Assembly: GCA_965208835.1 (NCBI GenBank)
Contig: OZ242358.1
Location: 928,001-992,000 of the forward strand
Source of the DNA: Candidatus Latescibacterota bacterium
GTDB lineage: Bacteria; Latescibacterota; UBA2968; GCA-2709665
Reading direction: 5' to 3'
Length of the DNA stretch: 64,000 nt
How positions within the stretch are numbered: position 1 is the first letter of the stretch; the number at the start of each line of letters is the position of its first letter. The position numbers were made by a program, and so were the translations under genes. Below, piece by piece: positions 8,400-43,836 of the stretch. The notes under the pieces were generated by a model, which saw only the letters and a list, made by a program, of their open reading frames with translations, was not told the DNA's origin and made no database searches.

Positions 8400-8464
8400 A
8401 TAGCGATTTTTTCTTGGATTATCACTGAAATATTGACCAATTTCGATGATTTATTGGTGAATTA
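8400..8464. promoter_or_regulatory. Phased 11-bp direct-repeat operator array, copy A
   Basis: ATAGCGATTTT TTCTTGGATTA TCACTGAAATA TTGACCAATT TCGATGATTTA TTGGTGAATTA; aligns with copies B, C and D. Confidence 0.65.
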
Positions 8465-8698
8465 TCGTGTTTTTCGCCAGACGAGAGACGGATTTGCAGC
8501 AGCGATTCGAAATACATCTGGTTGATTTCGATAACGATCAGGGAGTCAGCGGGGAACCGACGCCAGGGGATGGAAGGGCGGTTGTGCTGCCTGAAGGGCT
8601 GTGTGAATGACAGACGCGCACGTACATTTGTAGGATGCAGGTGGCCGTTGTGCTGCCTCTAAGGTATCGCCAGATGCACATCTCTCGGGGATGATCCA

Positions 8699-8897
8699 AT
8701 GCTGCAGTAGATCCTTCGTCGGCCCTGGGGGCCTCCTCAGGATGACAGTGGGGGACACGGGGGCCTAATCGAGGAAGGGTGTGCGAGAGGGGGCGGAGGT
8801 GCTGCGTCTCAGGTATCGACACGTGCAAGTCGTGGAGAGATCATCTCATGCTGCAGTAGATCCTTCGTCGGCCTGGAGGCCTCCTCAGGATGACAGT
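8699..8897. repeat. Two copies of a ~50-bp REP-like imperfect palindrome
   Basis: ATGCTGCAGTAGATCCTTCGTCGGCC-n-GGCCTCCTCAGGATGACAGT at 8699-8749 and 8848-8897. Confidence 0.75.
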
Positions 8898-8993
8898 ATT
8901 GGCGACGAGGCGCAATCGAGGCGGGCAGACAGGAATGTCCGCCCCACCTTCACGATACGTCGCACTGGGTCTGCGTCATACTACAATGCGCCC

Positions 8994-9926
8994 TTACGAC
9001 CCGCTGGATTTCCCGAAATTCGCGGCGAACGTCAGAAAGTCCTGGAAATCCACGTCGCCGTCACCGTCGAGGTCTCCTAGCAGACCACTTTGTCCCGGTG
9101 TGCTTTCCGTTGTCATTTCAGAAGTCCAACGGACACTGCCGTCTTCCGCCAGGGTTTCCGCGGCGCCGTTTCCGTTGTCATCCACAAACGCTCTGAACTT
9201 CCCTGCCGAAATCGCCAGCGTGCCGTTGCCGTCGGGATCCGCGCTGAGCGTTCCGATCGGCAGACCTGACTCACTGAGGGTAAACAGGAAGCCGTTGCCG
9301 TTTGCATCGGCGCCCAGGGCGGAAGCGGGGTTCCCGTTCCCGTTAAAAACCGTCATCGCCGCATCTCCGGATTCGCCGAAGAAAAACCCGGCAACAGCCC
9401 CCGACCCGCCGCTGACGTTCAGAAATCCATTGCCCTGGTCCGTTTCGTCTGCGCCCAGGACCGCGACGACCCGATCAGTCGAGTTCAGGACGCTAAACAA
9501 GCCACCTCCGGAATCGCCTGAGCCGGCCAGTACACGGTACTTTCCCTTACTATCGCGGATGGCCAGCACGCCGTCCCCTGCCTCGTCGAAACCCAGGAAC
9601 GCGACAACGTTACCCGCTTCATTTACAATCTGCAACCTGCCGATCTTCAGGACTTCGTCAGCAGCCAGGGCCGTTTTGCTCAACCCGCCGTCCCCGGACT
9701 CAGGGGAGAATGTCCACTTCGAAACGACGTCCGCCGAAGCCCTGTCCGGGAATGACCCCGGAACCGGTACCAATGCGGGTCCTAACTCTTTTAACCATTT
9801 CGACGCAGTACTCAATGCAGGTGAAGTACTGAATAGAAACAAAAGGAGCAAGCCGATGATCGCGCGTTTCTGCCAATGCAATCGACGTTCCAGATTATCC
9901 ATTCTCCGTACGTCTGCCCGGTACAC
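8994..9926 (-). CDS. Secreted/membrane-anchored Gly-rich beta-repeat protein with C-terminal dockerin/EF-hand tag
   Basis: GTG start after AAGGAGG; hydrophobic N-terminal segment; repeated G-x-L-x(n)-N-x-x-G units; C-terminal GDLDGDGDVDFQDFLTFAANFG. Confidence 0.8.
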   Translation of the reverse strand: MYRADVRRMDNLERRLHWQKRAIIGLLLLFLFSTSPALSTASKWLKELGPALVPVPGSFPDRASADVVSKWTFSPESGDGGLSKTALAADEVLKIGRLQIVNEAGNVVAFLGFDEAGDGVLAIRDSKGKYRVLAGSGDSGGGLFSVLNSTDRVVAVLGADETDQGNGFLNVSGGSGAVAGFFFGESGDAAMTVFNGNGNPASALGADANGNGFLFTLSESGLPIGTLSADPDGNGTLAISAGKFRAFVDDNGNGAAETLAEDGSVRWTSEMTTESTPGQSGLLGDLDGDGDVDFQDFLTFAANFGKSSGS

Positions 9927-10117
9927 AACTGTACCTCCTTACGGTTATGTTGTTTACGTGCATCTTCAATAACGAACTCGAGAGTTCTCTCGCGCTTCGG
10001 AAGTCTTCGTCGCTGCGCGTTGATGCTGTTTCTTTCGAACTGACGATGCCACGTGGCGATGTCACACGCTTGCATGGTTGCGGTCTAAAAGGGTATCGTC
10101 CAATCAGCATGACTACA

Positions 10118-10182
10118 ATAAGGAATTTTGGTTGGGATAGTTCTGAAATTTCGGTATATTTCGATGATTTATTGATGAATAT
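10118..10182. promoter_or_regulatory. Phased 11-bp direct-repeat operator array, copy B (divergent promoter region)
   Basis: ATAAGGAATTT TGGTTGGGATA GTTCTGAAATT TCGGTATATT TCGATGATTTA TTGATGAATAT, between the divergent genes starting at 9926 and 10306. Confidence 0.7.
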
Positions 10183-10305
10183 TGCTGCAATTTGCGCCAT
10201 CGTTGCCGCGTCCGTGCGACGTTGGCTGGATTTCACTTCAGTCTCTTCAGGTGGCGCACATCCAGTCAATCGGGATGCGTCCTGAGGGCACGGGAGGAGA
10301 GAAGC

Positions 10306-12693
10306 ATGCAACTCGCTGAGAAGCTTCAGACAGAGAACAGAAAGCTGCGGGATCGCCTTTCACGATTGAGCCAGGCGAGTCAGCGCATTAACGAAAGCCT
10401 TGATTTTGAAACGGTACTGCAGGGTGTGGTGGACAGCGCCAGGTCCGTGACGGACGCCAGTTACTGCGTGGCTACGCTACATGACGACGAAGGACAGGTA
10501 CAGGAATTTCTCGTCTCAGGAATGCCGTCCCACTGGGTCGGACAAATGCAGAGCTTCCCGGCGTCGCCGCCGCTGCACGAGTACCTCCGCGGAATTGAGG
10601 AGCCCCTGCGTTTGCGAGACTTATACAGCCACGTCGGGGCGCTCGGCCTCCCCATCGTCCGGGCTCCCGGGTCGACTGCCGAAACCATTTCGTTTATGTC
10701 CGCGCCAATCCGACACCGTGGTGAGAGCGTCGGCCATTTCTTCCTGGCGGGAAAGGCGAGCGGTCCGGAGTTTACCGATGAAGACGAAGAGACGCTGGTC
10801 ATGTTTGCTTCCCAGGCCGCTCTGGTTATTGCCAACGCCCGGCGCTACCGGGACCAGCAACGGGCCATGGCCGACCGCGAAGCCGTCGTCAATACCGCCC
10901 CGGTGGGTGTGGTTGTCTTTGACGCAATCAGCGGAGAGCCGGTGTCTTTCAATCGTGAGGCGGTAAGGCTCGTGGAAGGCTTGCTGAATGGTGAGCCTGG
11001 ATTGGAGAATCTTCTGGAAGTTGTGACGATCCGCCGCGCCGACGGGCGTCAGGTATCCCTGAAGGAACTGTCCATTGCCCAGGCAATGAGCGAAGGCGAG
11101 ACGGTACGTGCCGAGGAGGTCGTTTTCGAGGTGCCGGACGGACGAAGCGTTAAGGCGCTCATGAACGCCACACCCATTCGCGCTGACGACGGACGGGTGA
11201 CGTCATTTGTCGTGACCCTTCAGGACATGGCGCCTTTGGATGAACTGGAGTTGATGCGGGCTGAATTCCTTGCCAAGATCAGCCACGATCTGCGTGCGCC
11301 GCTGGCCGCCATCAAGGGTTCCGCTGAGACCGCACTGGGCGACACGTTCCCGTTCCGGCAGGCCGAGATGGTCCAGTTCTTGCGGATAATCAGCGAGCAG
11401 GCCGACCAGATGGGCGTTCTGATCAACGATTTATTGGACGTGACGCGGATCGAGACGGGGACCCTGGTCGTCAGCCCGGTACCTGTACTGGTTACCGGAC
11501 TGCTGGACCAGGCCCGGAATACGTTTCTGAATGGATGGAACCGCGACAATGTTCACGTCGACATGGCCTCCGGCCTCCCGCCCGTATTGGCAGATCCGGG
11601 TCGGATCGTGCAGGTTGTGGTAAACCTGTTGACGAATGCAGCGCGGAATTCACCCGAAGGGTCTCCGATTCGGGTAAGTGCCATGCAGGAGGGCGATAAT
11701 GTGTCGGTCAGTGTCATCGACCAGGGTCGGGGTTTGTCTCCTGAACAGATGGCGCACCTCTTTCGCAAGTCGCCTCGTCACGATCGGGACGAGGTCTCCA
11801 GGGAAGATCCGAGGTCCGGCTGGGGCCTCTCCATATGCCGGGGTATCGTCGAAGCCCACGGCGGCCGCATCTTTGCCGAGAGCGAGGGGCCCGACAAGGG
11901 AACCCGGTTCAGATTCACCATACCGATTGCCGAGGGCGTCGAAAAACCCGTCGGTAGAGGTACCGTTCCGTCCGTCGCAGGCGCACGAATCCCGGGAAAT
12001 CCACCGGCCAAAATCCTCGTCGTGGACGATGACCCGCAAACGCTGCGCAGCGTCCGAGAAGCCCTGTCGAACGCCGGTTACGTTCCGGTCGTTACCGGAG
12101 ATGCGAACGAGGCGATTGCCCTGTTCAAAGAACACAGTCCCCAACTGGCCCTGCTGGACCTCGTGCTCCCGGGCAGCGACGGGGTCGAGTTGATGCGTGG
12201 CATCGTCGAAAAGGCAGACGTGCCGGTTATTTTCCTTTCCGCCTATGGGCACGAAGACGCCATTGCACGGGCCCTGGACAGCGGTGCTGCCGATTATCTC
12301 GTCAAGCCGTTCTCACCTACGGAACTGGCGGCCAGGATCAGGGCCGCCATTCGTAAGCACACGGTCCCTCGTTTGGTCGTGCCATCGGAGCCGTTTCTGC
12401 GTGGGAAGCTGAAGGTCGACTACGCTCGACGAAGGGTGACGATTTCCGGGACGCCCGTGGATCTGACAAGAATTGAGTATTTCGTTCTCCAGGAACTTGC
12501 GGTGAACGCCGGTCGGACGGTCTTCTACGAAGACATTCTGGGACGTATCTGGGCCAGGCGGGGCACCGACGACAGGCGGCCACTCCACGCCGCGGTCAAA
12601 AACATCCGGCGAAAGCTGGGTGACGATGCGAAGAACCCCAAATGGATTTTTAACGAACCGCGGGTCGGTTATCGCCTTGGAAAGACAGAATAG
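10306..12693 (+). CDS. Cytoplasmic hybrid regulator: GAF-PAS-HisKA-HATPase-REC-OmpR/PhoB winged-helix fusion (KdpD/KdpE-like modules)
   Basis: GAF (EFTDEDEETL), PAS, H-box ISHDLRAPL, N-box NLLTNAA, DQGRG, receiver ILVVDDD...LLDL...YLVKPF, wHTH LTRIEY...IRRKLGDD...GYRL. ATG 10306 follows GGAGGAG (track starts at 10192). Confidence 0.92.
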   Translation: MQLAEKLQTENRKLRDRLSRLSQASQRINESLDFETVLQGVVDSARSVTDASYCVATLHDDEGQVQEFLVSGMPSHWVGQMQSFPASPPLHEYLRGIEEPLRLRDLYSHVGALGLPIVRAPGSTAETISFMSAPIRHRGESVGHFFLAGKASGPEFTDEDEETLVMFASQAALVIANARRYRDQQRAMADREAVVNTAPVGVVVFDAISGEPVSFNREAVRLVEGLLNGEPGLENLLEVVTIRRADGRQVSLKELSIAQAMSEGETVRAEEVVFEVPDGRSVKALMNATPIRADDGRVTSFVVTLQDMAPLDELELMRAEFLAKISHDLRAPLAAIKGSAETALGDTFPFRQAEMVQFLRIISEQADQMGVLINDLLDVTRIETGTLVVSPVPVLVTGLLDQARNTFLNGWNRDNVHVDMASGLPPVLADPGRIVQVVVNLLTNAARNSPEGSPIRVSAMQEGDNVSVSVIDQGRGLSPEQMAHLFRKSPRHDRDEVSREDPRSGWGLSICRGIVEAHGGRIFAESEGPDKGTRFRFTIPIAEGVEKPVGRGTVPSVAGARIPGNPPAKILVVDDDPQTLRSVREALSNAGYVPVVTGDANEAIALFKEHSPQLALLDLVLPGSDGVELMRGIVEKADVPVIFLSAYGHEDAIARALDSGAADYLVKPFSPTELAARIRAAIRKHTVPRLVVPSEPFLRGKLKVDYARRRVTISGTPVDLTRIEYFVLQELAVNAGRTVFYEDILGRIWARRGTDDRRPLHAAVKNIRRKLGDDAKNPKWIFNEPRVGYRLGKTE

Positions 12694-12757
12694 CGATGCC
12701 CGCCGTCGGCCAGGCGGAAGCGGATCCGGAACGACCCGGCAGCCTGGGTGCGGCAAT

Positions 12758-15700
12758 TCAGAAGTCCCGGAAAAGGGAGAGCCCGAAGCGATAGTCTCCG
12801 CCCCTGCCCCTTGTGACGGACTCTCCATTGGCGGCGCTCCGTCCCGAAAGGCGATATTCGCCGAGCAGCTCCAGCCGCAGATTCCTTGCGAGAAAACCCG
12901 GGGACCGGTCCGGACCTTCCACCACGTTGAGTCGCAGGCCGCCGCCCAGGCGGTGTAATCCCATGTCGTTCACGTCCAGTTCGACAAAGGGCTCCATCCC
13001 GCCCCTGCCTTTCTGGGTCCTCAGTCCGTAACCCAGGGCCGCACGCGTGCGGCCGGGACGCCAGTCCAGCGCCTCGCGTCCGCCCGCGGCGCTGCGGTAA
13101 GCCATCGTCCTTTCACCTTTCCACAGTGCCTCGACGCCGCTGCCGGCATTCTCTCCCCACGCCGGCGACAGCGACAGCGTCAGTCCCCTGTTATCGGATC
13201 CCGGGTCCAGACCAAGCGCCAGGCTCAGGCCGCGTTCTCTGAAGTCCCGGTCCTGATGCGCCGCCAGCCAGCGAGAACGGATCTCCACGTCCAGGCCGAT
13301 GCGGCGATTTGCAATGGAGAGCGCCCCGGCCAGTTCGGCACCCAAGCCCGTGTCGACGTCGCCGCCGTCAAGGCGTGCGCCCAGCGCCAGACTCAGATCC
13401 ATCCGCGTGTCTGGCGTTACGGACCATCCGGTGCTGCCGTTGACCATCATGCGAACGCGTCGGGCGTCACCTGCGGTTGCCCGCAGCCCGGCCAGGGCCT
13501 CGGAGCTGGTGCTCACCGCGAAGGCGTCCGCCGTCAACGCCAGGTCGACCTTCCTCACCCGCATCAGGTCCATCCTCCCGCCGAGCGCGGCGGACCGGCT
13601 GCTGATGTCCGTAACGATCGTACTGCTGCCCGTCCCCGCCAGCGGGCCGCCGTAGCCGCTGTTGAGTTCGGCGTCGCCCCTGCCGAAGCCCAGCATACCC
13701 CACAGGCCCAGCTTCCCGGTGGGGGACCAATGGAGGTAGGGACGCAGGCTGGTCAGTCGCGTGTGCCATTCGCCCGTACTCGCACCGGCATTGTCGAAGT
13801 CCTGCGTGCCATCGCTGTACGAGGCCGCCACACCCAGGGCGAACCTGTTTCCCCAGCGGTAATCGGCCCCGACGTACGCCGCCGTGACACCGCCGCCCAT
13901 GCGGTTATTCGATCCGGAGTCACCGGTATACCGGCTGCCGGTTCCTCGACCCCATAGCGTCCATCCACTCCATCCGGTTCCGGGACGGTCCATTGCGATC
14001 TGAAAGGAACTCCGCGTCAGAATACTCCGCCCGGAGGGCGCCCTCAGTGTGGGTTGAACGGCGTCCGGATCGGACGTTATCGCGGACAGCCCAGCCTGCG
14101 CTGCTGTTCCGGTCGCTGAACTGGAAGCCGGAACGTCCAGCGGTATGCCAAACATTCGTGCGGCAACGTGCGCCCACTCCATGGCATTGAACGCCTGCCC
14201 GAGGACAAGCCTGCTGCCATCGATTGTGGCTCGCAGCGCCCGTGACGTGGCTTCGAAGTGGCCGGTGATCGCATCCACGGCCTGGCTCAGCACCGTCCTG
14301 CCGAATGCCGCCAGCGAAAGCTCCAGCACGCGGGCGCGGTTGGACTGAAGATTTTCCACTATGACGGCGAAGGAGAGTGTCGCGCTCAGGCCAGACGGAT
14401 CGCGAGCCGTCACCGTAACGCGGGCGGTCGAGACCGCTACGGGCGAGAGGGCGATCACTCTGTCCGCCAAGCTGACGTTTACAATGCCGTTATCCGACGA
14501 CGCTTCGTAGGTCAGCGGGTCCCCGTCCGGGTCTGTGAACAGACCCGTCAGGTCGACCCGTCCGTTGGTGCCCATCGTCAGCACCTGGTCCGGGATGGTT
14601 CCCGTCACCGATGGTCCCAGATTCACTCCTGTTATCAAGATTCTCACCGTGGCTTCATCGCTTCTGGCGCCTCGGCTGTCTTCAACCCGATAGGTGAAAC
14701 GGTCTTCGGCCACCCTGCTTCCGTCGTGGATGTAGATGAAAGTCCCGTTCTCAAACAGCGTGAGTGACCCGTAATTGGGCGCCTCGACGAGGATTGCAGT
14801 CAACGTGCTCCAGTCGTCTTCAGCGTCCACGTCGTTGGCCAGTACGCTGATGTGTCCATCATCGGTTTCGGTTGCCGAAACACTGTTCGCCAGCGGCGCA
14901 ATCTTCGCGCCCGCCTCCGGTTCCGGTATATCGAAATCTTCGGGTGGCGTCGCGGACGGATTTCGCGTAACATCACGGGTGTCGCCGTTCCATAAGGACG
15001 TTGCCCTGCGGCCCCGGAAAACCGTTACGACGTCGTCCACCGCCACCGGCGCTGTGTTGACCCGCGTTCGACCGGTTCCGGAAGCCGACCAGGCGCCCGC
15101 ACCCTCCGCATTCTTCGCCCTGACTTGCACCTCGTAATCTGCGCCGGACTCCAGCCCCCGGATCGCCGCCATGGTCTTCGTGCCCGTGAACGGGTGGGAC
15201 GTCCAGTCCGCAGCGCCCTGCTTGCGGTACTGAACGTCGTAGTCGCTGATGGCCGGGCCGGTGTTCGCCGGCGGCCGCCAGTCCAACCGAAGGCTTTCCA
15301 GCGAGGCACCGGTGACCCTCGGCGCCGAGGGTGCGGCAGGCGGCTCGGCCGCGTCGGTGACGTTGATGGTCACCTCGATGACGCTGCTGCCCTCTCTTCC
15401 GTCATTGACGGTCACCGTAACCACGTAGGACAGGGGTCCCGCTTCGTAGTCCAGGGAAGCACCCTTGGAAACCGATATCTGACCGGTATCCGAATCGATG
15501 GCGAAGGCATCCGACCCTGACAGGGTATAGCTCAGGACATCACCGTTCGGATCCGTTGCCGCGACCGGTTCCCCGACCGTTCCGCCGGCGGGGGTATTCT
15601 CAGCCACTGCGCGCGTGGTTGCGGCGCCGGCGTCGAAGCCAGGCGGCTCGTTGTGGCCGTCGTCTATGATCGTGCCCGTTACGGGGTCGCCCACCGTCAC

Positions 15701-18700
15701 CCCGGAGGGCGCGCGGGAGACTCGCAGACTGACGGTGAAGGTCTCGTTTCCTTCAATGGCGTCGTCCTCCTTCGTCTCCACGGTGAACGTGTGCGCTTCG
15801 CCCGCCGTGCCGCTGAACCTGAGCGGGGATACGTTGGCCGTATAGTCGACGCCTGCCGTCGCTGTCCCGTCGCTGAAAACGGGCGTCAGCGTCAGACCGC
15901 CCTGGACCGGCCGGTTCAGCGTTACCTTGAAGGTCATCCCGTCGCCTTCAGATGCGTTCGCGTCTCCGCTCGCCACCGTTGGGCTGCCTCCGACGGTCCC
16001 GCCGTCGTCGTCTATGATCGTGCCGGTTACGGGATTGCCCACCGTCACCCCGGACGGCGCATCGGACACCCGCAGACTGACGGTGAAGGTCTCGTTTTCT
16101 TCAACGGCCTCGTCCTCCTTCGTCTCCGCGGTGAACGTGTGCGTTTCACCCGCCGTGCCGACGAAGGTGAGCGGCGCCGTGTTGGCCGTATAGTCGATTC
16201 CCGACGTCGCGGTCCCGTCGCTGAAAACGGGCGTCAGCGTCAGACCGCCCTGAACCGGCCGTTTCAGCGTTATCTTAAAGGTCACCCCGTCGCCTTCAGA
16301 TGCCTCCGCGTCCCCGATCGTAACCGTGAGCTTGCCTCTGACGGTCCCTCCGTCGTTGTCTCTAAGCGTGCCGGTCGCGGTGTCCGTTGTCACGCCGGAG
16401 GTCGACGTCCCGGAGATGCCAAGGCTTACCGTAAACGTCTCGTCATTCTCAACAACCTCGTCGTCTGTGGCAGCCACCGTGAACGTGTGCTTTTCACCCA
16501 CCGTCCCGGTGAAGCGAATGGGCGCAGCGTTTGCCGTGTAGTCCACGCCTTCGACTGCCGTCCCGTCGCGGAAGCCGGGGGTGACAGTGAGACCGCCCGA
16601 TACCGCCCGGTTCAACTTTATTGTGAAGGTCAGTACCTCCCCCTCGACCGCGCTGGCGCTCGAGACCGTCACCGTCACCGTCTCTCCAGGCGCGGAAGGG
16701 CCCAGGGTCGAGGCGCGACCGCTGTCCGACCACTCGCCGGCGCCTTCCACGTTTCTTGCCAGCACCTGAACCTCGTAGGTGGAAGCCGCCTTCAGGCCGG
16801 TGAGGGTTGTGCCGGCGCCCGCGCCGTCAAACGCATGGTCTCGCCATTCCGTAGTGCCCGCTTCTCTGTACCGAACGTCGTAATCCGTGACGGGCGCACC
16901 GTTGTCGGCAGGCGGATTCCAACTGACGACCAGCGACACTCTTGGGTCGCTCGCTGACCGGGCGACCGAAGGCGTGCCCGGCGCGTTCGGCGGCGACGCG
17001 TCGGTCACGTTGACCGTAACGTGAAGTATGCCCGTGTGACCATGCCCGTCGTCCACAGTGACCGTCAGGTCGCCGTACGAGTTTCTCGTCTCGAAGTCCA
17101 GCGGTTCCCTTGTCCTCAGCTGGCCGGTGGCCGGATCCAGGGCGAAAGCGGGTGCGTCCGACCCGCCAAGTGAATATGAGAGCGGGTCGTCTTCGGCGTC
17201 CGTCGCCAGAAAGGGCCCGCCTATGTCCGTGTGCGGCGGCGTGTTCTCGACCACGAAGCGGATGGCTGTATCGCCCTCGTCGAAAACCGGCGGCGCGTCG
17301 TTATCCAGGATGGTCACCGTCGCCGTACGCTGGCTCACCGAGACTTTGCGGGTCACTTCCCTGGCGACCGAGGGCTCGCCCAGCTCCACCTGGAAGCTTT
17401 CCAGGTCCTCGTGTTCGTCGTCGTCGAGGATGGTGATTTCGATCATAGTCTCAGTCTGTCCGGCTGCAAGAGTGACGGTACCCGAGCTGGGTTTATGCTC
17501 GTGTTTCGTGCCGCTCTCCGCGACGGATAGCTTCGAAGCGGACGTCGAGCTCGAGCTGCTCCACGGCACTTCGACCGTACCGCCCACGGACTCGGTGATC
17601 CTGACCGGGAGTTCCACAATCAGACCCTCCTCCACCGGGTCTTCAGGTTCGTGAACGGAGACGTAGACGGTACCACCGCCGTTGTTTCCCTGGGGGTTCC
17701 GCCTGTTGACGTTCGCCAGCACCGAGAACTGGCTTGCCGCTTCATTGCCGTTGCCCGCAACGTCAATAGCTGCGTTCGCGGCCACGTCCGCGGTCACGGT
17801 TCCGGTGGCTGCCGGCGTGATGGTGGCTGTGTAAGTGTCGCTAGATCCGGAGAACCCCGTGACCGACCCGTTCCCCGCCGTGACGTCTCCCTGTTCGAAC
17901 CCCGTAACCGGCTCGGAGAAGGTGATCGTTGTTACGAACGGGCCGTTCTGCGTAGTGGCCGGACCGCTGATGCTGACAGTCGGCGCGTCGAGGTCCGCCT
18001 GCACGGAGAACTGGCTCGCCGCTGCATTGCCTTTGTCATCAGAATCAACGGCCACGTTCGCGGCCACGTCCGCCGTCACCGTACCGCTCGCCGCAGGCGT
18101 AATCGAGGCCGTGTAACTGGAGCCTGAACCGGAAAATGCGGTCACCGCTCCGTTGCCGACCGATATCTCGGGCCGCTCGAACCCGGTGACGTCCTCCGAG
18201 AAGGTGATCGTTGCGTCAAATGGACCTTTCTGCACATCAGTCGGGCCGCTGATGCTGACGGTCGGCACGCCTTCGTCGTCGATGACGGTTCCGGTGGCCG
18301 TATTCGTCGCCGTCACCGGCAACGTCGTCCCCGAGACGCTCAGGCTCACCGTGAACGTCTCGTTCGCCTCGTCGTCCTCATCCTCGGTCGTCGACACGTT
18401 AAAACTATGCGTTTCCCCCGCCGTCCCGGCAAAGCTGAGCGCGGCCGTGTTTTCCGTGTAATCCGTGCCCTTCGTGGCCGTGCCGCCGTCGAAGCCGGGG
18501 GTCACGCTGAAGCCGCCCGTCACCGCCTTGTCCGCAGCCACGGTAAACGATATTTCGTCCCCCTCCGAGGCCGAAGCATCAGCAATCGTCAGGATCGCGG
18601 TGTCGTCGTTGCTGATCGTCCCCGTCGCTGTATCGGTTGCCGTCACCGTTTCCGTCGTGCCGGAGACGGTAAGGCCGACGGTGAACGATACGTCAGCTTC

Positions 18701-24118: not shown

Positions 24119-24190
24119 CGGCCGGCTCCTTCTGGTGATGGATGATTGCCGTCCGCAAGGGCGCGGACAGTTTCAGTCGCCATCACATAT

Positions 24191-24207
24191 TGCAGAAGCC
24201 GTGCCAA
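24191..24207 (-). promoter_or_regulatory. Sigma54 -24/-12 promoter of adhesin 1
   Basis: TTGGCACGGCTTCTGCA (GG-N10-GC) about 75 bp upstream of the ATG. Confidence 0.8.
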
Positions 24208-24378
24208 CGTAGAGGATTATTCATAAGTATCTATATTTAAAATGCTTATGTACATAGTTGCCATGAGGGCCTTTTGTTTGAAGATGTCTCGAAACGAAAC
24301 GGCGAAGCGCTTGCCGCATAATCCAAGTTATAATTAAGATACATAATTACAATGAGTTATGTTAAACTTGCATTGATC

Positions 24379-24414
24379 CGTCTCAATTTGAAACACGAGT
24401 CTCAATTTGAGACG
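24379..24414. promoter_or_regulatory. Tandem palindromic enhancer (UAS) sites for a sigma54 activator
   Basis: GTCTCAATTTGAAAC and GTCTCAATTTGAGAC, 19 bp apart; conserved upstream of adhesin 2. Confidence 0.7.
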
Positions 24415-25036
24415 GAAGCGCGCCTCACAATGTACACAACGAACACGAAATCTGACCAGGGCGGTCGTTCGCCGGCCTGCTCGCACGGGCCCGGGAAAAC
24501 CGCCCAGGTAACGTCGCTCCCGAAGAGCCCCGAACAGAAACGGCCGAGGCCGGAATGACCGTGGCTGCATTTGCAGACGATGGCAAGAGAAGACTATATC
24601 GGATTCCGACCTCGATGATCCAGTGGGCTGGAAACCCGACCCTGATGGTGTTTTCGCCATCAGGATGCGAGGAGGCCAATAAGAACGAACTGCCACCGGC
24701 TACGAGGGCATATATCAAATAAAATATGTTACCTTGACAATCGTCGAACCCGTGGGGCAGATGTCCCGGATCCTGTTTGCGAACGACGTTGATTCGGCCG
24801 GGACGCACGGGGTTGAGCGTCCCGTTATCGGAAACAGATCGCCCCGGCTGCGTTTTATGCGAACCGGGGCGGATTATCCGTTGCGTACTGTCGTCCGGTG
24901 GCAACGGCGTTTCGGTTAACATATCTTTTTTAATATGGTTCCGAAGCGGTCCTTGTGCGTGTCGGATTTGCCGGACTCAGTCTGCCAACGACACGGGTAA
25001 GCGCCTTGCACGAATCCGATAATGCGACGATCGGGC

Positions 25037-35728: not shown

Positions 35729-35799
35729 CGGCCCACTCCGTTTGGCAATGGATGATTGCAGCCCGCGAGGGCCGGCGGATTTATCGTTCCGTCATCGCA

Positions 35800-35816
35800 A
35801 GCACAAGCCGTGCCAA
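35800..35816 (-). promoter_or_regulatory. Sigma54 -24/-12 promoter of adhesin 2
   Basis: TTGGCACGGCTTGTGCT (GG-N10-GC), at an equivalent position to the adhesin 1 promoter. Confidence 0.75.
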
Positions 35817-35993
35817 AGCCGTCGGATATTCTCAAGTCTCTTTAAACAAGGAACTTATGAACATTTCTTCGCAGAGCAGCCAGGAGTCGATATCGTTTCA
35901 AAATGGAACGAAGGCGCAGCGATTACGCCAGTCGTAGTCCGCACAAGATAAATAAATACAGTTAGTTATACAGAAATCCATCTGGCCCCACAC

Positions 35994-36023
35994 AAATCGA
36001 AACACGAGTCTCAATTTGAGACA
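35994..36023. promoter_or_regulatory. Palindromic UAS upstream of adhesin 2
   Basis: ...GAAACACGAGTCTCAATTTGAGACA; the core palindrome starts 192 bp from the -24 end of the promoter, exactly as for adhesin 1. Confidence 0.7.
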
Positions 36024-36409
36024 AACAACAACCGGAAGAATGAACCCTGACAGAAAGCAGGACAACCAGACCGGTCACTCGAGTGCGTGCCCGGCCGGCC
36101 CGGGAACGTGAACATGATATCGCCTCCCTGTTCTCGCGAGTTGCGATCCCCACGGCACGGAGTTTCAGGTCCAAAAGCGTGGCTTTTCTTGTAACAGGTG
36201 AATACACAATGCTGTCTTCTCAGTTCAGGCCCATCGAGACGGGATTCGCCAGGTCCCTGACGAACGACCCGGCGCCGATCCAGAACGTATATATTAAATA
36301 AGTTATGTCTATTCGAAAAACGAGAAAAAGGGATCAAAATGACATATTGTTTATAGTATGTATATGAATCGACCATCAATCCGGCGGCGCACATGATTGA
36401 CAGCACCTG

Positions 36410-36472
36410 ATTCTCTTCAAGATAAAGCCCGGTGCAATCTCTGATTGCACCGGGCTTTATCTTGAAGAGAAT
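36410..36472. terminator. Perfect 30-bp inverted repeat, probable terminator of the kinase-activator-small protein operon
   Basis: ATTCTCTTCAAGATAAAGCCCGGTGCAATC-TCT-GATTGCACCGGGCTTTATCTTGAAGAGAAT. Confidence 0.65.
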
Positions 36473-36522
36473 GGCCGGACGACGCTTACATCCTCTCCCT
36501 TTCGGAATCGAGCCGGATCAGG

Positions 36523-36693
36523 TCAGGTCGGTGGTCCGGTTGCCTGAAGGAAGATCCACAGGACTCTCCATTTATGTTCCCTGCAGGGAGGAAATCGTTG
36601 TCCTTTTCGGACTACGATTCGATCCTTGCAGGGGCATAGGCCAAAGGCCCGGTAGGTCCCGGCGGTCTGACAGGTTTGTCCGGTTTTTGGCAT
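36523..36693 (-). CDS. 56-aa Cys/His small protein, YjzC-like (copy 1)
   Basis: MPKTGQTCQTAGTYRAFGLCPCKDRIVVRKGQRFPPCREHKWRVLW...; KTGxxxxxxGxY...GxxFPPC...W pattern; paralog at 42452. Confidence 0.75.
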   Translation of the reverse strand: MPKTGQTCQTAGTYRAFGLCPCKDRIVVRKGQRFPPCREHKWRVLWIFLQATGPPT

Positions 36694-36719
36694 CTCTATG
36701 TTCTTAATTCTGTACTGGT

Positions 36720-38615
36720 TCAACCACGGTCAATCAGGTTGTATTTCTTCAATTTCCGGTATAGCGTTGCGCGACCGAGACCGAGGGCTCGCGCCGCTTC
36801 GGTTACGTTGTTGTCCGACGCCTCGAGGGCGTTGACCAGCGCCTGCCGCTCGACTTCCGCCAGAGGGAGGACTGACGCCGGCGCCGCGCCGCCCTTTCCG
36901 GAATCTACAATTGGCGAGAGTTGCGGCGGCAGGTTATTCACCTGCAGAACGTCGGTTGTCTCCAGCAATACGGCGCGCTCGATGGCGTTCTCGAGTTCGC
37001 GAACGTTGCCCGGCCAATTGTACTGCAACAACAGGCGCAGCGCGGCAGTGGAAATACCACTGATGGATTTACCGTTGCTTTTCGTGTGCTTTTCGAGGAA
37101 GTGTTTCGCCAATAACGGGATATCTTCGCGGCGCTCCCGCAGCGGGGGAATCGCGATCGGGAAGACGGAAACGCGATAGAACAGGTCTTCCCGGAACCTG
37201 CCTGTCTTAACCGCATCCTCCAGGTCCTTGTTGGTGGCAGCGACCAGCCGGATGTCTACAGGGATCGGAGTCGTTGTTCCGACGCGCTGTATCTCCCGCT
37301 CCTGCAGGACGCGCAGCAATTTGGCCTGCAGGGCCAGGTCCATGTCTCCGATCTCGTCGAGGAAGACCGTTCCCCCCATCGCTCGTTCAAAGACACCGAT
37401 CCTCCGCCTCGTCGCCCCGGTAAAGGCGCCCTCTTCGTGTCCGAACAATTCACTTTCGATAAGGGCCTCCGGAATGGCGGCACAATTGACGGCCTGGAAC
37501 GCCCCCCCTTTCCTCAAGCTGTTGAAGTGAAAGGACTTGGCGACGAGTTCCTTACCGGTTCCGCTTTCGCCCTGAATAAGCACGGTGATATCGCTCTCGG
37601 CAGCCTGCTTCACCAGCGCGTATACCTGCTGCATCGGAGGGCTGGAGCCGACCATGCCTGAGAAGGAATACGTCGTCTTGAGTTCGGTGCGCAAACGAAG
37701 GACTTCGGCCTTCATTCGCTCCACCTGGATCTCTCTGGACACGTCGCGGTAAACGTAAAGATCGCCGATGATGTCCCCCTCGACGTCACTCACCGGGGCC
37801 ACGGACCGATAGAACAGGCGCTCGCTGGGCAAGTTGCCCGACTTGGCCCTTTCCACGATCTTACCCTTGCTTCCGAAGATGAACCTCCCCTCCATATCAG
37901 TCAGATCGGGTTCGCGGAATCTCTCATCGAACCGCTCGCTGAAGGCTTGTGGAGACATCTTCCTCAATTCGCTCTTCGTGACGTCCAGGACCCTTTCGTA
38001 CCGGCGATTGGCGAACACCAGGTTTCCGGTGACGTCGTACATGGCCAGGGCGTCACCGGTTGAATCGAGCACAGCTTCGAGGCGGTCATGACTGGTGGTC
38101 AGCTGCCGTCGTTTTTGCTCCAATTCCTGTTCTACATTCCACTTTCCGACCAGTGAAAGCGTTATCTGCTGGATTTCCTCGCGGGCAAAGGGCTTTCGGA
38201 TATAGAGAACCTTATGGAGCAACTCCATATCCTCGATAATTTCCACCAGCGTCTTGTCCGTGTAGGCCGTCATGATGACAACCTCAAGGTCGCGGTCGAC
38301 TTTTCTTACGCGGCGGATCGTCTGGATCCCGTCAATCCCCGGCGGCATTCTGATGTCCACGAATGCGACGGCAATCGGTCGGCCGGCATCCTTCTCCGCC
38401 TCAACAACCTCACAGGCCTCCTCACCGCTGTTCACGTGCAGAAGCTCGAATTCAGGAAGAAACGACTCGTTCTTTTGCTGCGTGAACGCTGACGCCAGCT
38501 CATCCGTAACGGTTTCCACGAATCGGGGTTTCAACATTTCCGCAAAGTCGTCGTGAATTTCCTTCTGGTCATCCACAATCAACACGCGACGATTCCTGAG
38601 ATTACTGAAATCCAT
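36720..38615 (-). CDS. Sigma54-dependent activator: REC-PAS-AAA+-Fis HTH
   Basis: Receiver VLIVDD...FVDIRMPPG...IRKPF; PAS; GESGTGKE; GAFTGA; WPGNVREL; [19 protein letters not shown]. Confidence 0.95.
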
Positions 38616-38737
38616 CGAATACCTCTGTAATTATCGTCCTGCGTTGCGTATCGTTCGGCCGCGGCAGCAGTTCCTGGTTACGGCGGCGACGCAACGTCTG
38701 CCGTGGTGTCCCATCACACGTGACTACCGGCGGTGAC

Positions 38738-41700
38738 TCAAGAAAGCGAATCTCCCTCATCAGCCTCTGACTTGGGCATCAACGAGGAGAGCCGCAGCTT
38801 GACACGCATTGTGGTACCCTTGCCGTTACCGGCACTTATCGGGTTAATCTGCCCGCCGGAACCGATTATGAAATTCGCGATGGAGTGAAGACCCAGCCCG
38901 CTCCCCACCTCTTTCGTCGTGTATCCTGCCGCGAAGATGATCTTCAGTCGCTTTTCTTCTATGCCGATGCCGTTGTCAATCACATCGATGACAAGGTAAT
39001 CGTCCTGAATGTAGGACCGGATATGAATGCGGGGTTTCGCCTGGAGTCCGCCCGTTCTCTCGAGTTCGTCGATGGCTTCAATGGCGTTCTTGACGAGATT
39101 GACCAGCATCTGATGAAACTTGCTCTCCTGGATTCGAATCTCGTCCGGCGCATTCCCGCAGTCGACTTCGACCTGAACGCTTCTCTTATTGAGTGAGTCC
39201 TGTAGCAACGTGGTGGCGTCCGAGATGGCCTTGAGAAGGTCGACGTCTTTGCGCGCGAGGGCTCCCGTATCGAGTGCGCGTTGGGTTCGGATGATATCGA
39301 CGATATGCGCAGCACGGCTTTCTACACGTCCGACCGTCTGAACGAGCTGTTCATTCTGCGTGGCAAAGTCCCGGGCGAGGCCGAGAATGAACGGGAACAC
39401 CTTCTGACCCTGCGGGTCTGATTTCAAATAAGAGATCCAGTCGTCCCGATGTTCCTCTATCGCCGCCGCAAGCGCAGATATGCGATGAACGAGCTCGTTT
39501 CCCGACAACTCCCCTTGAATCGTCCCCAGACCTGTGGCGACGCTATTGATGGCGTTTCCGATGTTGTGGAGGATCGTATCCACAATTTCCAGCCTTCCCT
39601 GCGCGAACGCCTGAGAAAGGGCTTCTTCCGCGAGTATGCGCTCGGTGACGTCCCTGAATACGATCACGCCGCCCTTGGCGATACCCGACTCGTCGTGAAG
39701 GGGTCTCCCGCTGACGCTGATGTAGACGCCTTCCGGCACGCTCGGATTGCGGATGAACATCTCCACCTCATCGCATGGTTCGCCCTGGATGGCGCGGACG
39801 AGCGGAAGTTCGTCCATCGGATAGGGAGTCTCCCTGTCGGAAAAGAAAATACCGTACTGGTCCGTCCATTGATCGGGGGCCGTTTCCGTCATGCCGATTC
39901 CGACCATCCGCTCCGCACTTGGATTGAAGATCGTGAAGTTCCCGTTTTCGTCGGCCACGACCACGCCGTCGCTGATGCTGTTGAATATCGTTTCCATCGC
40001 CTGGGTCTGCGTCCGCAGATTTTCGGCCGTTTTCTGGAGATCGCTCTCCGCCGTCTTCAGCCTGGTTACATCCCGCAAGGTAATCACGCCGCCCCTGATC
40101 CTGTGTGAATCGTCCCGCAGGGGTCTCCCGTTTACGCTGATGTATACACCGTCCGGCCTTTCCCTGTTGCGGACGAACAGTTCGACGTTGTCCGTTGACT
40201 CGCCCTGAACCGCGCGGGTGAGCGGTAGCTTTTCCGTTGGAAACAGCGTTTCCGAGTCCGGATGGAAGAGGCCATATATGTGGGACCGTCTCGAAAAGTC
40301 GGCGTCCGGAATCTGCAATCCGAGGATGTTTCTCGCGCCCGGACTGAAAATCAGGTAGTCTCCCGCCTCGTCGACGACGATGACACCGTCGCTGATGCTG
40401 TTGAAGACCGTTTCCATGAGATGGGTCTGCTCCTGAAGGTCGCGGACGGTTGTCTTCAGCTTCGACTCGGTCGACTTCTGAACGGTGACGTCCCGCAGTA
40501 CGATGACGCCGCCCTCGATCTCGCCGGAATCGTCCTGAAGCGGGCGGCCGCTTACGCTGATGTATACACCGTCCGGTCTTTCCTGATTGCGGATGAACAA
40601 CTCGACGTCATCGGTTACTTCGCCATGCATGGCGCGGACGAGCGGAAGTTCGTCGGATGGAACGGGTGTTTTCTGATCCGGATAGAACGTTCCGTATTCC
40701 TTTGACCATTGATCGGTCGGGCTATCCGTCGGTCCCATGCCCACGATTTCTCTCGCGCTGGGATTGACGAAGAGGAACTCTCCTTCCTTGCCTGTCACCA
40801 CGATACCGTCGCTGACGCTTCTGAAAACCGTTTCCATGAGCAGGGCCTGCCTCTTCAGCTCGCTGATGGTTTCCAACAGTTTTGCTTCCTGCTCTTTGTG
40901 CCTTGTTATGTCGCTGAAAACGACCACAGCAGCTTTGACTTTTCCACCGGTACCGTTGGCGCCCCGTATAAACCGTCCCCTGGCGCTGACGTAGGTACCT
41001 CCCGGCTTTTTATCGTTGCGCACGAAGTATTCGAGATCGTCCGTATTTTCTCCCTTCAGAGCGCGTACAAGGGGCAGTTGTTCAGTTGGAACGGGAGTTT
41101 CCATATCGAGATAAAACGCGCCGTATGTGTCGGACCATTCATCGGGCGTTGCATCCATCTGACCCTTGCCGAGAATGCGCTCCGCACTGGGGTTGAACAG
41201 GAGCAGTTTACCCTCCGCATCGGCGACCACCACGCCCTCATCCATATTGTCGAAGACGGTTTTCATGAGCTGGCTCCGGTCGTGCAGTTCGGAGACCGTC
41301 TGTTCCAGACGGGCTTCGGTTTCAGTGATCTGTTCCAGGGCGCTCTCCAGTTGTTGCCGCTCGCTTTCGAGCTGTTCGTTGTTGGCCAGGAGGTGGTCAT
41401 ACAGACGTTGGCTGGAAAATTCGTGGCCCCACGCTATGATTGAAACGAAGACAAACCCGACGAGGAACCTGATAACTTGCTCGGTTTCGTAGGCGAACGT
41501 GCCGGCCAGCCCCGGCGCCAGCAACAACACGGCCGCTACCAGAGAGAAGAAACCTGTCAGAATTCCGCCTTCGCGTCTGCCAAGGAAAAAGAAAAACAGC
41601 AAGGGCATCAGGATGTGAAAATAGAGGAAGTTATGTGTGAAAGCGGAAAGCCAAAGCAGCCCGATCCCGACTCCCAACAGGACGACGCGATAGGATTTTC

Positions 41701-41896
41701 GAGCTTCCGCGCCCAGCAGGAGTCCGGCCAGGCCGCCAGCCACGAGCAACGTTATGACACTGTGGGTCCACATCGCCAGTAACTCACCGCTCAGGTAGTT
41801 GCGAACTGTATAGCCGACAAGGACCATCAAACCGACCGTGCAGGCGACAACGAAAACCTGTTTCCTGTGTCGGGCTTGCGCGTTCCTGGAATCCAT
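38738..41896 (-). CDS. Membrane sensor histidine kinase with four tandem PAS domains
   Basis: About 6 N-terminal hydrophobic segments, coiled coil, four homologous PAS repeats, H-box ILHNIGNAINS, NLVKNA, DNGIG, GSGLGL. ATG 41896 chosen (track starts at 41968). Confidence 0.92.
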   Translation of the reverse strand: MDSRNAQARHRKQVFVVACTVGLMVLVGYTVRNYLSGELLAMWTHSVITLLVAGGLAGLLLGAEARKSYRVVLLGVGIGLLWLSAFTHNFLYFHILMPLLFFFFLGRREGGILTGFFSLVAAVLLLAPGLAGTFAYETEQVIRFLVGFVFVSIIAWGHEFSSQRLYDHLLANNEQLESERQQLESALEQITETEARLEQTVSELHDRSQLMKTVFDNMDEGVVVADAEGKLLLFNPSAERILGKGQMDATPDEWSDTYGAFYLDMETPVPTEQLPLVRALKGENTDDLEYFVRNDKKPGGTYVSARGRFIRGANGTGGKVKAAVVVFSDITRHKEQEAKLLETISELKRQALLMETVFRSVSDGIVVTGKEGEFLFVNPSAREIVGMGPTDSPTDQWSKEYGTFYPDQKTPVPSDELPLVRAMHGEVTDDVELFIRNQERPDGVYISVSGRPLQDDSGEIEGGVIVLRDVTVQKSTESKLKTTVRDLQEQTHLMETVFNSISDGVIVVDEAGDYLIFSPGARNILGLQIPDADFSRRSHIYGLFHPDSETLFPTEKLPLTRAVQGESTDNVELFVRNRERPDGVYISVNGRPLRDDSHRIRGGVITLRDVTRLKTAESDLQKTAENLRTQTQAMETIFNSISDGVVVADENGNFTIFNPSAERMVGIGMTETAPDQWTDQYGIFFSDRETPYPMDELPLVRAIQGEPCDEVEMFIRNPSVPEGVYISVSGRPLHDESGIAKGGVIVFRDVTERILAEEALSQAFAQGRLEIVDTILHNIGNAINSVATGLGTIQGELSGNELVHRISALAAAIEEHRDDWISYLKSDPQGQKVFPFILGLARDFATQNEQLVQTVGRVESRAAHIVDIIRTQRALDTGALARKDVDLLKAISDATTLLQDSLNKRSVQVEVDCGNAPDEIRIQESKFHQMLVNLVKNAIEAIDELERTGGLQAKPRIHIRSYIQDDYLVIDVIDNGIGIEEKRLKIIFAAGYTTKEVGSGLGLHSIANFIIGSGGQINPISAGNGKGTTMRVKLRLSSLMPKSEADEGDSLS

Positions 41897-42091
41897 TTTC
41901 AACTTCCTCCGCGGTCCGGCTTGCGCGGGACCATAGTCCTGTTTCCTGAATCTCCCGCCAGTTGGCAAACTGTCTCCGGGACAGCACCCCGGATCTCATG
42001 AAACCGGTATTTCCGGTCGATCCCCATCCAGCGGGTTTCACGACGGCTTGGTTGGAGACTTCCACGAGTCGTTCAATTGCAAGGTGATAAC

Positions 42092-42156
42092 TTAACGATT
42101 CTTTGTCGAATTATTGTTGAATTATTGAACCTTTCTGATGATTTATTGATGAATTT
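42092..42156. promoter_or_regulatory. Phased 11-bp direct-repeat operator array, copy C
   Basis: TTAACGATTCT TTGTCGAATTA TTGTTGAATTA TTGAACCTTT CTGATGATTTA TTGATGAATTT. Confidence 0.7.
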
Positions 42157-42279
42157 TGGCCGAATCTGCACCGCCGGGGCCCAAACCTGCGAAATACAGG
42201 TTGAAACAGCCTCAGGAGATCGACGGCTTCGCCAATACAAGGTGAAGAGGCAGGAGTGCGGGAGCACGGGGTGGAGCGC

Positions 42280-42420
42280 ACGTAACTGACCGGCGGAATC
42301 AAGAAAGATGACAGGCTGCCTGGCGGCCTTTCCATATCGCACGACGGGTGCGGTGGATCAAGGGTCCTGCTGAATGGAGGTGAGGACAGGTGGGTGGGAT
42401 AAGACGATGAGGGTCCCGTG
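42280..42420 (+). pseudogene. Decayed 5' remnant of a hybrid-regulator gene (paralog of 10306..12693)
   Basis: ACG TAA CTG ACC GGC GGA ATC..., compared with intact ATG CAA CTC... and relic D ATG CAA CTG ACC GAC GGA ATT; exactly 188 bp after the start of box C. End approximate. Confidence 0.5.
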
Positions 42421-42451
42421 ACGGTGCGCCGGCGTATGCCGCCGGATCAAG

Positions 42452-42622
42452 CTACGGACGTTGTCCGATTCCTTGAATAAACACCCACAGAACTCTCCAT
42501 CCATGTTCTCTGCATGGTGGAAAGCGTTGTCCCTTTTCAAGGATGACTCGATCCTTGCAGGGGCATAGGCCGAACGCTCTGTAAATCCCCGTTGTCTGGC
42601 AGATTTGTCCGGTTTTTGACAT
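42452..42622 (-). CDS. 56-aa Cys/His small protein, YjzC-like (copy 2; not in the ORF track)
   Basis: MSKTGQICQTTGIYRAFGLCPCKDRVILEKGQRFPPCREHGWRVLWVFIQGIGQRP; 40/56 identical to copy 1, same length, with synonymous and conservative changes. Confidence 0.75.
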   Translation of the reverse strand: MSKTGQICQTTGIYRAFGLCPCKDRVILEKGQRFPPCREHGWRVLWVFIQGIGQRP

Positions 42623-42944
42623 CCTTAACAAGCAAAAGGGAACGGCAGGTCAACGGTTGATTTTGAGGTGGCCTTCATAAACGCGGTTGCCCTACCGCGT
42701 GGATTGATGTATCGCAGCGGCCTGGTAGCGATATGATTCCGTGTACCGGAGTTAAAGTCCCGGCGTAGCCTGCTTGTCGCCGATTCGACTGGACGGTACT
42801 GTCATAGACTCCTTCTGACCATTCATGCAGGTCCAGCGTCCGCTCGACGGAGTCAACATTGGTTTCGGTGTAACCGACCTTTCTTGCTGCTTTTAGGGCA
42901 AGACCGCGCCCTTCCCGACTATACCTGGCACTGCTGGCCGAAAT

Positions 42945-43127
42945 CTACAATTCCTCCCCCGGCCCCTCCGCCCAATCTTCGTACTTTGATCGCTTTGTCT
43001 TATGCCTGTCACATATCCGGTTCTCAGGTCCGGTACTCTTAAACATCCTCCCGCAGCTCAGGCACTTTCGCATCTTGCGTTTGCCGCCGTCAATGAAATC
43101 TCTGCCGCGCCAGGTCGGACGGTTCAT
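42945..43127 (-). CDS. 60-aa zinc-ribbon-like small protein
   Basis: RKCLSCGRMFKSTGPENRICDRH (CxxC...CxxH); first gene downstream of box D. Confidence 0.7.
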   Translation of the reverse strand: MNRPTWRGRDFIDGGKRKMRKCLSCGRMFKSTGPENRICDRHKTKRSKYEDWAEGPGEEL

Positions 43128-43220
43128 AGCGAGGGTTCCTGAAAAAAGCTGACGATGTGTTGACGCGGCAATCGGCTCGTTCAGCGCTCGGTTTTACGTG
43201 CTTGTCAAGGCTACGCCAAT

Positions 43221-43285
43221 TTAACGATTCTTTGTTGAATCAGTGTTGAAATCTTGGACGTTTTTGATGATTTATCGATGAATTC
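43221..43285. promoter_or_regulatory. Phased 11-bp direct-repeat operator array, copy D
   Basis: TTAACGATTCT TTGTTGAATCA GTGTTGAAATC TTGGACGTTT TTGATGATTTA TCGATGAATTC. Confidence 0.7.
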
Positions 43286-43407
43286 TTGGGTATTTTACCA
43301 AAGTCAGGCTCCCAATCCGCGAGCTGCACGTTGATTTGGCGGGGGGCGTCTTGCATCATCGACGATTCAGGCAGAACGGAAGGGAATACGGGGAATGGAA
43401 GTCCCGC

Positions 43408-43670: not shown

Positions 43671-43676
43671 GTAAAG

Positions 43677-43704: not shown

Positions 43705-43836
43705 ATTAATGCGCTTCCTGACATTCTGGACGATACTGACGGAGCGTGTCATTCTGTATTCTCCTCATTTCGTGGCAGCCCGTTTTTGATTTTTCTTCCC
43801 TCTTCCATATCCCCGTCTCTTCGGTTACTCTTCCTT

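Follow-up and report, generated by a model that had tools for sequence, protein, structure and literature searches.

A four-copy array of six phased 11-bp direct repeats as a candidate operator beside a fused two-component regulator

Introduction

At the OmpR sites and the PhoB pho box, contiguous phased half-sites lie upstream of the -35 region or replace it. At ompF and ompC, OmpR has three contiguous 20-bp sites, which amount to six protomer positions; affinity is greatest at the distal site, from which occupancy extends towards the promoter. The hybrid two-component systems (HTCS) of Bacteroides carry a DNA-binding output of a different type, AraC. Here we describe four copies (A to D) of a 66-bp array of six 11-nt direct repeats, one of them beside the gene for a fused sensor kinase-response regulator, in a 64-kb stretch of contig OZ242358.1 from a Candidatus Latescibacterota bacterium (assembly GCA_965208835.1, positions 928,001 to 992,000; hereafter the window, with position 1 its first letter).

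Two described operators come closest to this array. Work on ArcA reports sites of two to five repeats with a predominantly 11-bp centre-to-centre distance, which are of unequal strength and are filled cooperatively and in a concentration-dependent way (PMC3798270). Work on Streptomyces PhoP, a regulator of the OmpR/PhoB family, describes operators built from 11-nt units with a conserved core of two or three; those of class III have as many as six units, combine the conserved core with poorly conserved extension units and are bound cooperatively, and removal of a single base from a unit drastically reduced binding (PMC2275107). As for the regulator, the HTCS of Bacteroides are described as containing a membrane sensor kinase (PMC11253607). 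A literature search on the lineage studied here found nothing, and the 17-nt core of the array does not occur in the searchable literature.

Results

The array was located through its core, GATGATTTATYGRTGAAT (18 nt). With up to three mismatches allowed, the window contains four matches, all on the plus strand, against 0.09 expected, and none of 100 shuffled windows reached four. The matches start at 8445, 10163, 42137 and 43266, which are the four sites, in the same single orientation, that a first-pass annotation of this DNA had claimed. Each element begins 45 nt before its core and is an AT-rich array of six 11-nt units (u1 to u6): copy A spans 8400..8465 (core 8445-8462; GC 0.415), copy B 10118..10183 (core 10163-10180), copy C 42092..42157 (core 42137-42154) and copy D 43221..43286 (core 43266-43283), all on the plus strand. 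Copy C has the clearest 11-bp repeats (lag-11 identity 0.60) and reads, in 11-nt steps from u1 to u6, TTAACGATTCT TTGTCGAATTA TTGTTGAATTA TTGAACCTTTC TGATGATTTAT TGATGAATTTT.

We compared eight copies, the four in the window and their counterparts A', B', C' and D' in two relatives. Self-identity is greatest at a lag of 11 nt, with a mean of 0.48 over the eight copies compared with 0.19-0.39 at the other lags from 5 to 24. Among 2000 shuffles the observed lag-11 value was never matched for C, and was matched by a fraction of 0.0015 for D, 0.0185 for A and 0.187 for B; overall, the periodicity is significant against shuffles (p<0.05) in seven of the eight copies, B being the exception. The six-unit register is identical in all eight copies from the three genomes. 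The first-pass annotation had proposed a spacing of 11-11-11-10-11-11, of which the helical phasing stands while the 10-bp step is unneeded, as a uniform 11-bp register fits. Every unit closes with an A/T tract of 4-6 nt that is thereby phased at 11 bp, and their intergenic regions contain no strong AT island other than the elements themselves (GC 0.35-0.42). No inverted repeats were found in the elements; the repeats are direct.

The units are not equally conserved. The pair u5-u6 is near-invariant in seven of the eight copies, while conservation is intermediate in u2-u3 and weak in u1 and u4; A' departs from the core at three positions. A two-unit pattern, TGNTGAWNNNNTGNTGAW, matches the window seven times with up to one mismatch (0.5 expected), and six of these seven matches fall within the four elements. 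Outside them, a matrix built from 32 units found no further array in the window that exceeded the shuffle maxima: the best outside score, at 37061 within coding sequence, was 17.6, whereas shuffles reached 19.5, and for three units the two values were 15.4 and 16.0.

To place the array beyond this window, we scanned one genome for each of 185,579 species with the pattern TGAAN{14,16}GATGATTTATNGNTGAA. The scan returned 45 loci, of which three, from two genomes, are whole-element homologues; the other 42, which occur as single hits in Bacteroidota, Nitrosopumilus, Aestuariivirga and other taxa, are judged from their flanks to be due to chance or to unrelated coding sequence. Relative 1, a metagenome-assembled genome labelled Gemmatimonadota and ~87-92% identical to the window, carries B' (locus L036) and D' (locus L035) on one contig, and L036 also holds the diverged A' in the same six-unit register. 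Relative 2, an uncultured bacterium that is ~81% identical and of which 4 kb is visible, carries C' (locus L037). In three of the four orthologous pairs the element is more conserved than what surrounds it: identity is 0.92 for B/B' (left flank 0.79, right flank 0.83), 0.76 for C/C' (0.65 and 0.47) and 0.70 for A/A' (0.35 and 0.42), whereas D/D' are too similar to inform (element 0.97, or 64 of 66 positions; left 0.97, right 0.95). Judged by these alignments, the array is under constraint at orthologous positions, from which it follows that it is not mobile.

These comparisons also bear on whether the element is a protein-binding site at all. The alternative that it is a structured RNA, a coding remnant or a miniature mobile element is largely refuted, and we give it hardly any weight. 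Repetition of the element would suit a mobile element, but the copies have no inverted repeats and sit at orthologous positions in the relatives. Copies A, C and C' do give a similar short peptide in one plus-strand frame; against a coding origin, that frame is interrupted by a stop in D, the two core positions that vary fall on first and second codon positions, and the 11-nt period is not a multiple of 3. As for a structured RNA, Rfam gave no match at gathering thresholds or at E<=1 and the copies fold differently, with plus-strand fold z-scores of -0.2 to -0.45 except for C at -2.1. Neither a transcribed RNA nor a coding remnant, both of which the first-pass annotation had raised, is thus supported by Rfam, folding or reading frames.

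All four copies are intergenic in a gene map based on Pfam, codon-position GC and comparison with the relatives. Copy B lies between divergent genes, 122 nt from the start codon (ATG 10306) of a plus-strand gene for a 795-aa regulator (10306..12693) and 216 nt from the ATG (9902) of a minus-strand gene for a 301-aa secreted protein. Pfam resolves the regulator into a GAF-PAS-HisKA-HATPase-REC-Trans_reg_C fusion (Response_reg 2.9e-26, Trans_reg_C 8.1e-14), with an H-box ISHDLRAPL and receiver motifs VVDDD, LLDLVLPG and LVKPF. Its receiver and winged helix-turn-helix (wHTH) domains, at about residues 565-795, align end to end with MtrA (1.9e-34) and KdpE (1e-30), the closest among solved structures, and it reaches no NCBIfam equivalog cut-off. 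By these alignments the protein is a bona fide OmpR/PhoB-family REC-wHTH, as the first-pass annotation had proposed, and it is the only Trans_reg_C winged-helix protein among the 31 distinct window open reading frames (ORFs) scanned. The translated sequence shows no hydrophobic N-terminal segment; together with the H-box and receiver motifs, this indicates that the fusion should be a soluble, self-contained two-component protein, free to bind DNA. It belongs to a very large family: of 8000 candidates scored, at least 7059 are relatives at E<=1e-10, and the best 120 members are nearly all ~795 aa long with the same domain set.

With u5-u6 as a near-invariant pair, u2-u3 as another and the two remaining units weak, the array matches the multi-repeat operators of the OmpR/PhoB family, and for this reason we read each copy as an operator of that type; the direct repeats of 10-11 bp that the first-pass annotation had attributed to the family find their counterparts in the anatomy of the ArcA and Streptomyces PhoP sites. 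In its specific form, in which the adjacent fusion protein binds the array, we rate this reading at slightly below an even chance, the ligand being assigned from adjacency alone; what favours the fusion as ligand, in up to three dimers, is that it is soluble and the sole wHTH among the scanned window ORFs. Each copy would then be a cis-regulatory operator with a TG(A/T)TGA(A/T) half-site followed by an A/T tract, its units lying on one helix face, and would most likely be filled by a winged-helix response regulator of the OmpR/PhoB family, whose dimers would bind cooperatively. In this scheme u5-u6 would form the high-affinity core, u2-u3 a second, weaker dimer site three helical turns away, and u1 and u4 low-information extension sites occupied through protein-protein contacts. 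The "extended oligomer" of the first-pass annotation is speculation; the known precedent is three dimers bound cooperatively.

The same kind of operator could serve another ligand, either an OmpR/PhoB-family regulator encoded outside the window or an AT-preferring nucleoid-associated protein, with the neighbouring fusion gene merely one of the regulated genes. The architecture points to a family and not to a given member, the window is only 64 kb of the genome, and in the genomes scanned the exact core does not extend beyond close relatives despite the very large size of the fusion-regulator family. On the other side stand the position of the fusion as the sole wHTH among the ORFs scanned and its persistence in relative 1, where it stays beside B' and near D'; in addition, autoregulation from an adjacent site is common in two-component systems. 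Weighing the two sides, we think a different ligand unlikely, though a serious contender.

Several observations weigh against binding of the array by the fusion protein and should be set beside the points in its favour. Copy B, the one beside the regulator gene, is the least periodic and is not significant alone. The genome beyond the window may encode other OmpR-family regulators. The co-occurrence check proposed by the first-pass annotation, run with the exact core, found it in only two other genomes, compared with a regulator family of at least 7059 members, although exact matching misses diverged motifs. No usable -35 hexamer was found on either side of the elements, and scans for consensus sigma-70 promoters and terminators gave no site that recurred across the copies. 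The minus-strand ATG lies at no uniform distance from the element, the gap being 94 nt for D, 196 for C, 216 for B and 595 for A. Finally, in relative 2 the ~190 nt upstream of the zinc-protein gene contain no array, this gene being the orthologue of the gene next to copy D; a degraded D-type copy was considered there, and as its alignment was unconvincing it was counted as absent.

Turning to the direction of control, all copies lie upstream of a minus-strand gene, as the first-pass annotation had claimed, but B occupies a divergent region with the regulator on the plus strand. No plus-strand gene starts beside A, C or D, so that parsimony favours the minus-strand genes as the targets there, and copy B may serve both of its divergent genes. 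Copy B also faces the regulator gene itself, and the direction of control, like its sign, is a prediction. Both borders carry -10-like hexamers. In all eight copies the outer edge of u1 is overlapped by a minus-strand TAnnnT hexamer (TATCAT, TATTGT, TAAGTT and TAAATT in those of the window, where these hexamers lie at 8397-8402, 10115-10120, 42089-42094 and 43218-43223). Six of the eight also have a plus-strand nAWTYT hexamer, with GC after it, at 8-13 nt past u6 (10188-10193, 42162-42167 and 43291-43296 in the window); A and A' lack it. Transcription is predicted to start ~7 nt past a hexamer, leftward for the minus-strand kind and rightward for the plus-strand kind. Hexamers with no usable -35 are what activator-dependent promoters would show, but chance in AT-rich DNA can give the same. 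Sigma-54 promoters or enhancers were considered as well and rejected: none of 18 loose matches lies in or beside an element, the repeats are direct and not inverted, and in a TTGGC...TGC stretch that follows u6, GG and GC are separated by 8 nt instead of the required 10 nt.

Hexamers of this kind would also be found if the elements were promoter modules without a dedicated regulator, in which phased A/T tracts form curved, UP-element-like DNA that brings RNA polymerase to the -10-like hexamers at the borders. The 4-6-nt tracts phased at 11 bp in each unit, the status of the elements as the only AT islands in GC-rich intergenic DNA and the TAnnnT or nAWTYT hexamers at their borders all fit such a module. 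Curvature, however, would not demand the invariant G-containing TGATGA and TGAAT, which are kept in three genomes while the flanks drift, and neither the lack of a -35 nor the inconsistency of the consensus scans across copies is in its favour. We therefore consider a curved promoter module improbable.

The plus-strand hexamers lead to a further alternative, in which the regulator gene is driven from B, while C and D arose by duplication of the B promoter and leader and now drive conserved non-coding transcripts of ~200-270 nt antisense to or converging on the zinc-protein gene, and the minus-strand genes are not targets. A hexamer 8-13 nt past the last unit has the geometry typical of PhoB-activated promoters, and it is present in B, C, D and their orthologues. 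A conserved non-coding segment to the right of copy D (43287..43560, plus strand) has paralogous counterparts right of C (42158-42430), C' and D', and this shared segment of ~200-270 nt keeps the plus-strand transcript model alive. In addition, GCATGCAACT occurs in B (10285-10315) and D (43390-43420), at 143 and 142 nt from the core start and after a purine-rich stretch; its ATG starts the regulator gene at B and opens only a 29-codon frame at D; it may be the trace of an old duplication of a promoter and gene start. Against these points, the right-hand segment has no Rfam match and folds weakly as a consensus (-20 kcal/mol over 325 columns), no terminator-like plus-strand site follows C or D save a weak match at 42865, and A and A' have no plus-side hexamer. 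Furthermore, similarity of B to C or D beyond the core is not significant by BLAST, and in three of the four intergenic regions only a minus-strand gene needs a promoter. Plus-strand promoters as the main function of the array thus strike us as quite improbable. A 1-nt indel breaks any reading frame common to the right-hand segments. A 23-nt block, GGGYGGGATAAGACGATGAGGGT, is also common to the right flanks of C (42392-42414) and D (43645-43667), at unequal distances from the element.

The predicted targets of an operator bound by the fusion protein are the neighbouring genes. At copy B the fusion would control itself, the divergent 301-aa protein or both; at A, C and D it would control, respectively, the leucine-rich repeat (LRR)/dockerin operon, a PAS-kinase/sigma-54-activator pair and a 60-aa zinc protein. 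The minus-strand neighbours of copy A, 595 nt off, are two genes for dockerin-LRR surface proteins (3195-7805 and 1-3153, the second running off the window; Pfam LRR_1/LRR_8/Dockerin_1). An ORF between the LRR gene and copy A (7825-8304) has a non-coding codon pattern, leaving no credible ORF in the 595-nt gap, and copy A is the sole AT island of the 1.2-kb gap from the LRR gene start (7805) to the 301-aa gene stop (8994). The region to its right (8577-8921) holds a 149-bp tandem duplication (8639-8774 vs 8788-8921, 77% identical) and three copies of the 16-mer GGCGGTTGTGCTGCCT; in relative 1 the unit is also present once, to the right of D'.

The 301-aa secreted protein (8994..9902, minus strand) has a visible signal peptide and a dockerin/EF-hand-like C-terminus with the motif GDLDGDGDVDFQDFL, and its gene beats an antisense ORF (8890-9972) on codon-position GC pattern. 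It had been called a dockerin protein by the first-pass annotation, but the dockerin-like character of the C-terminus is weak (Pfam EF-hand match, E=0.039). Copy C precedes a PAS histidine kinase gene (38738-41896, minus strand), whose start (ATG 41896) was set by comparison with the orthologue in L037, and a REC-PAS-sigma-54 activator gene (36720-38615, minus strand); both were identified with Pfam and NCBIfam. The order of kinase, C' and zinc-protein gene is kept in relative 2, where C' lies ~206 nt from the kinase ATG. Some 790 nt without a credible gene separate copy C from the gene for the 60-aa protein.

This last protein (42945..43127, minus strand, ATG 43127), the minus-strand neighbour of copy D, is CCCH zinc-ribbon-like, with C22, C25, C39 and H42 invariant, and is conserved in both relatives. 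It matches no Pfam or NCBIfam family and is nearly an orphan, having one homologous cluster in 5.8 billion proteins besides the two related loci. Right of copy D, ~550 nt without a credible gene lead to a minus-strand gene for a 302-aa protein; a GC-rich inverted repeat at 43674-43707, ~130 nt past the stop of that gene (43837) and with no T run after it, may be its terminator. In relative 1 the place of the 302-aa gene is taken by a toxin-antitoxin-like pair, one gene being Gp49/HigB-like (8.2e-22) and the other HTH_3 (6.8e-11), at 598-1293 on the minus strand of locus L035.

The pair downstream of copy C would connect the array to two giant Calx-beta/cadherin adhesin genes (12758-24118 and 25037-35728, both minus strand), since the sigma-54 activator and PAS kinase genes lie directly upstream of these and copy C precedes the pair. 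Both adhesin genes have a near-identical TGGCACGGCTT(C/G)TGC box ~73 nt before the ATG, a sigma-54-type -24/-12 box at 24191-24206 for the first and at 35800-35815 for the second (minus strand). A perfect palindrome, GTCTCAATTTGAGAC, lies ~200 nt upstream of both boxes and has no mismatch-free copy elsewhere in the window; the palindromic sites are at 24380-24394 and 24399-24413 before the first gene and at 36008-36022 before the second, all on the minus strand. Box and palindrome are typical of a sigma-54 promoter and an activator site, and the sigma-54 activator encoded nearby is the likely ligand of the palindrome. Copy C before the kinase/activator pair, together with the sigma-54 boxes and shared palindrome of the adhesin genes, suggests a cascade in which both giant adhesin genes would be transcribed from their sigma-54 promoters under the control of the pair. 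Elsewhere in the window, a second GAF-kinase/REC-sigma-54-activator pair is encoded at 49604-53132 (minus strand), and a good -24/-12 match lies at 49189-49204.

The first-pass annotation spoke of a surface-protein regulon. Two of the four neighbouring units do encode surface proteins, and the others are the kinase/activator pair and the 60-aa zinc protein, so that the term holds only if the sigma-54 cascade is real; the adhesins would then be indirect members of the regulon, and they are its best support. Relative 1 lacks the whole of this island, a 29.7-kb block (window 12.7-42.4 kb) comprising the giant adhesins, the sigma-54 activator, the PAS kinase and copy C; at that place it has only remnants of ~200 nt resembling the 3' ends of the giant genes and window positions 36512-36694. 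The regulator gene remains beside B' there, and because the island is absent, the zinc-protein gene and D' follow the regulator gene within 1.2 kb.

Discussion

If binding is confirmed, the array would supply a ready-made operator and a small regulon for single-polypeptide two-component regulators that are widespread and unstudied, and would link this class to LRR/dockerin proteins and giant Calx-beta/cadherin adhesins. Its value lies in this entry point to an uncharacterised sensor-regulator family. If the cascade is true as well, control would run from the fusion regulator through the PAS-kinase/sigma-54 activator to the giant adhesins, in a poorly studied lineage labelled Gemmatimonadota in public records. 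A bolder interpretation is that the array is the first operator identified for the very large uncharacterised family of soluble ~795-aa GAF-PAS/kinase/receiver/OmpR-wHTH proteins, loaded as three pre-tethered dimers on six units and standing atop a two-tier cascade to the giant adhesins that switches the cell surface. Loading as pre-tethered dimers is proposed because the kinase core would hold two chains together. We regard this interpretation in its entirety as doubtful.

The kind of feature described here is already well known, since 11-bp phased repeats with a strong core and weak extensions are textbook for the OmpR/PhoB family. The array differs from the OmpR sites in the length of its units, which are 10 bp there and 11 bp here, and we claim no sequence similarity between the two. 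The ArcA sites of Escherichia coli share with the array 11-bp direct repeats of unequal strength and have an AT-rich TGT-type half-site (PMC3798270); ArcA is, however, a global regulator with more than 100 sites, mostly a repressor overlapping sigma-70 promoters, whereas here we find four six-unit sites in 64 kb. The class III operators of Streptomyces coelicolor PhoP are similar in having tandem 11-nt units, up to six of them, with a strong core and weak extensions in promoter regions (PMC2275107). They differ in their unit, which is of a GTTCAYY type there and TG(A/T)TGA(A/T) plus an A/T tract here, and in their ligand: for PhoP, regulator and kinase are separate and binding has been shown, while for the array the candidate is a kinase-receiver-wHTH fusion whose binding is predicted. 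In this last respect there is a parallel with the HTCS of Bacteroides, in which one polypeptide combines the sensor kinase with a receiver and a DNA-binding output (PMC11253607). The fusion regulator described here departs from them in having no hydrophobic segment, in sensing through GAF and PAS domains and in using an OmpR-type wHTH as its output.

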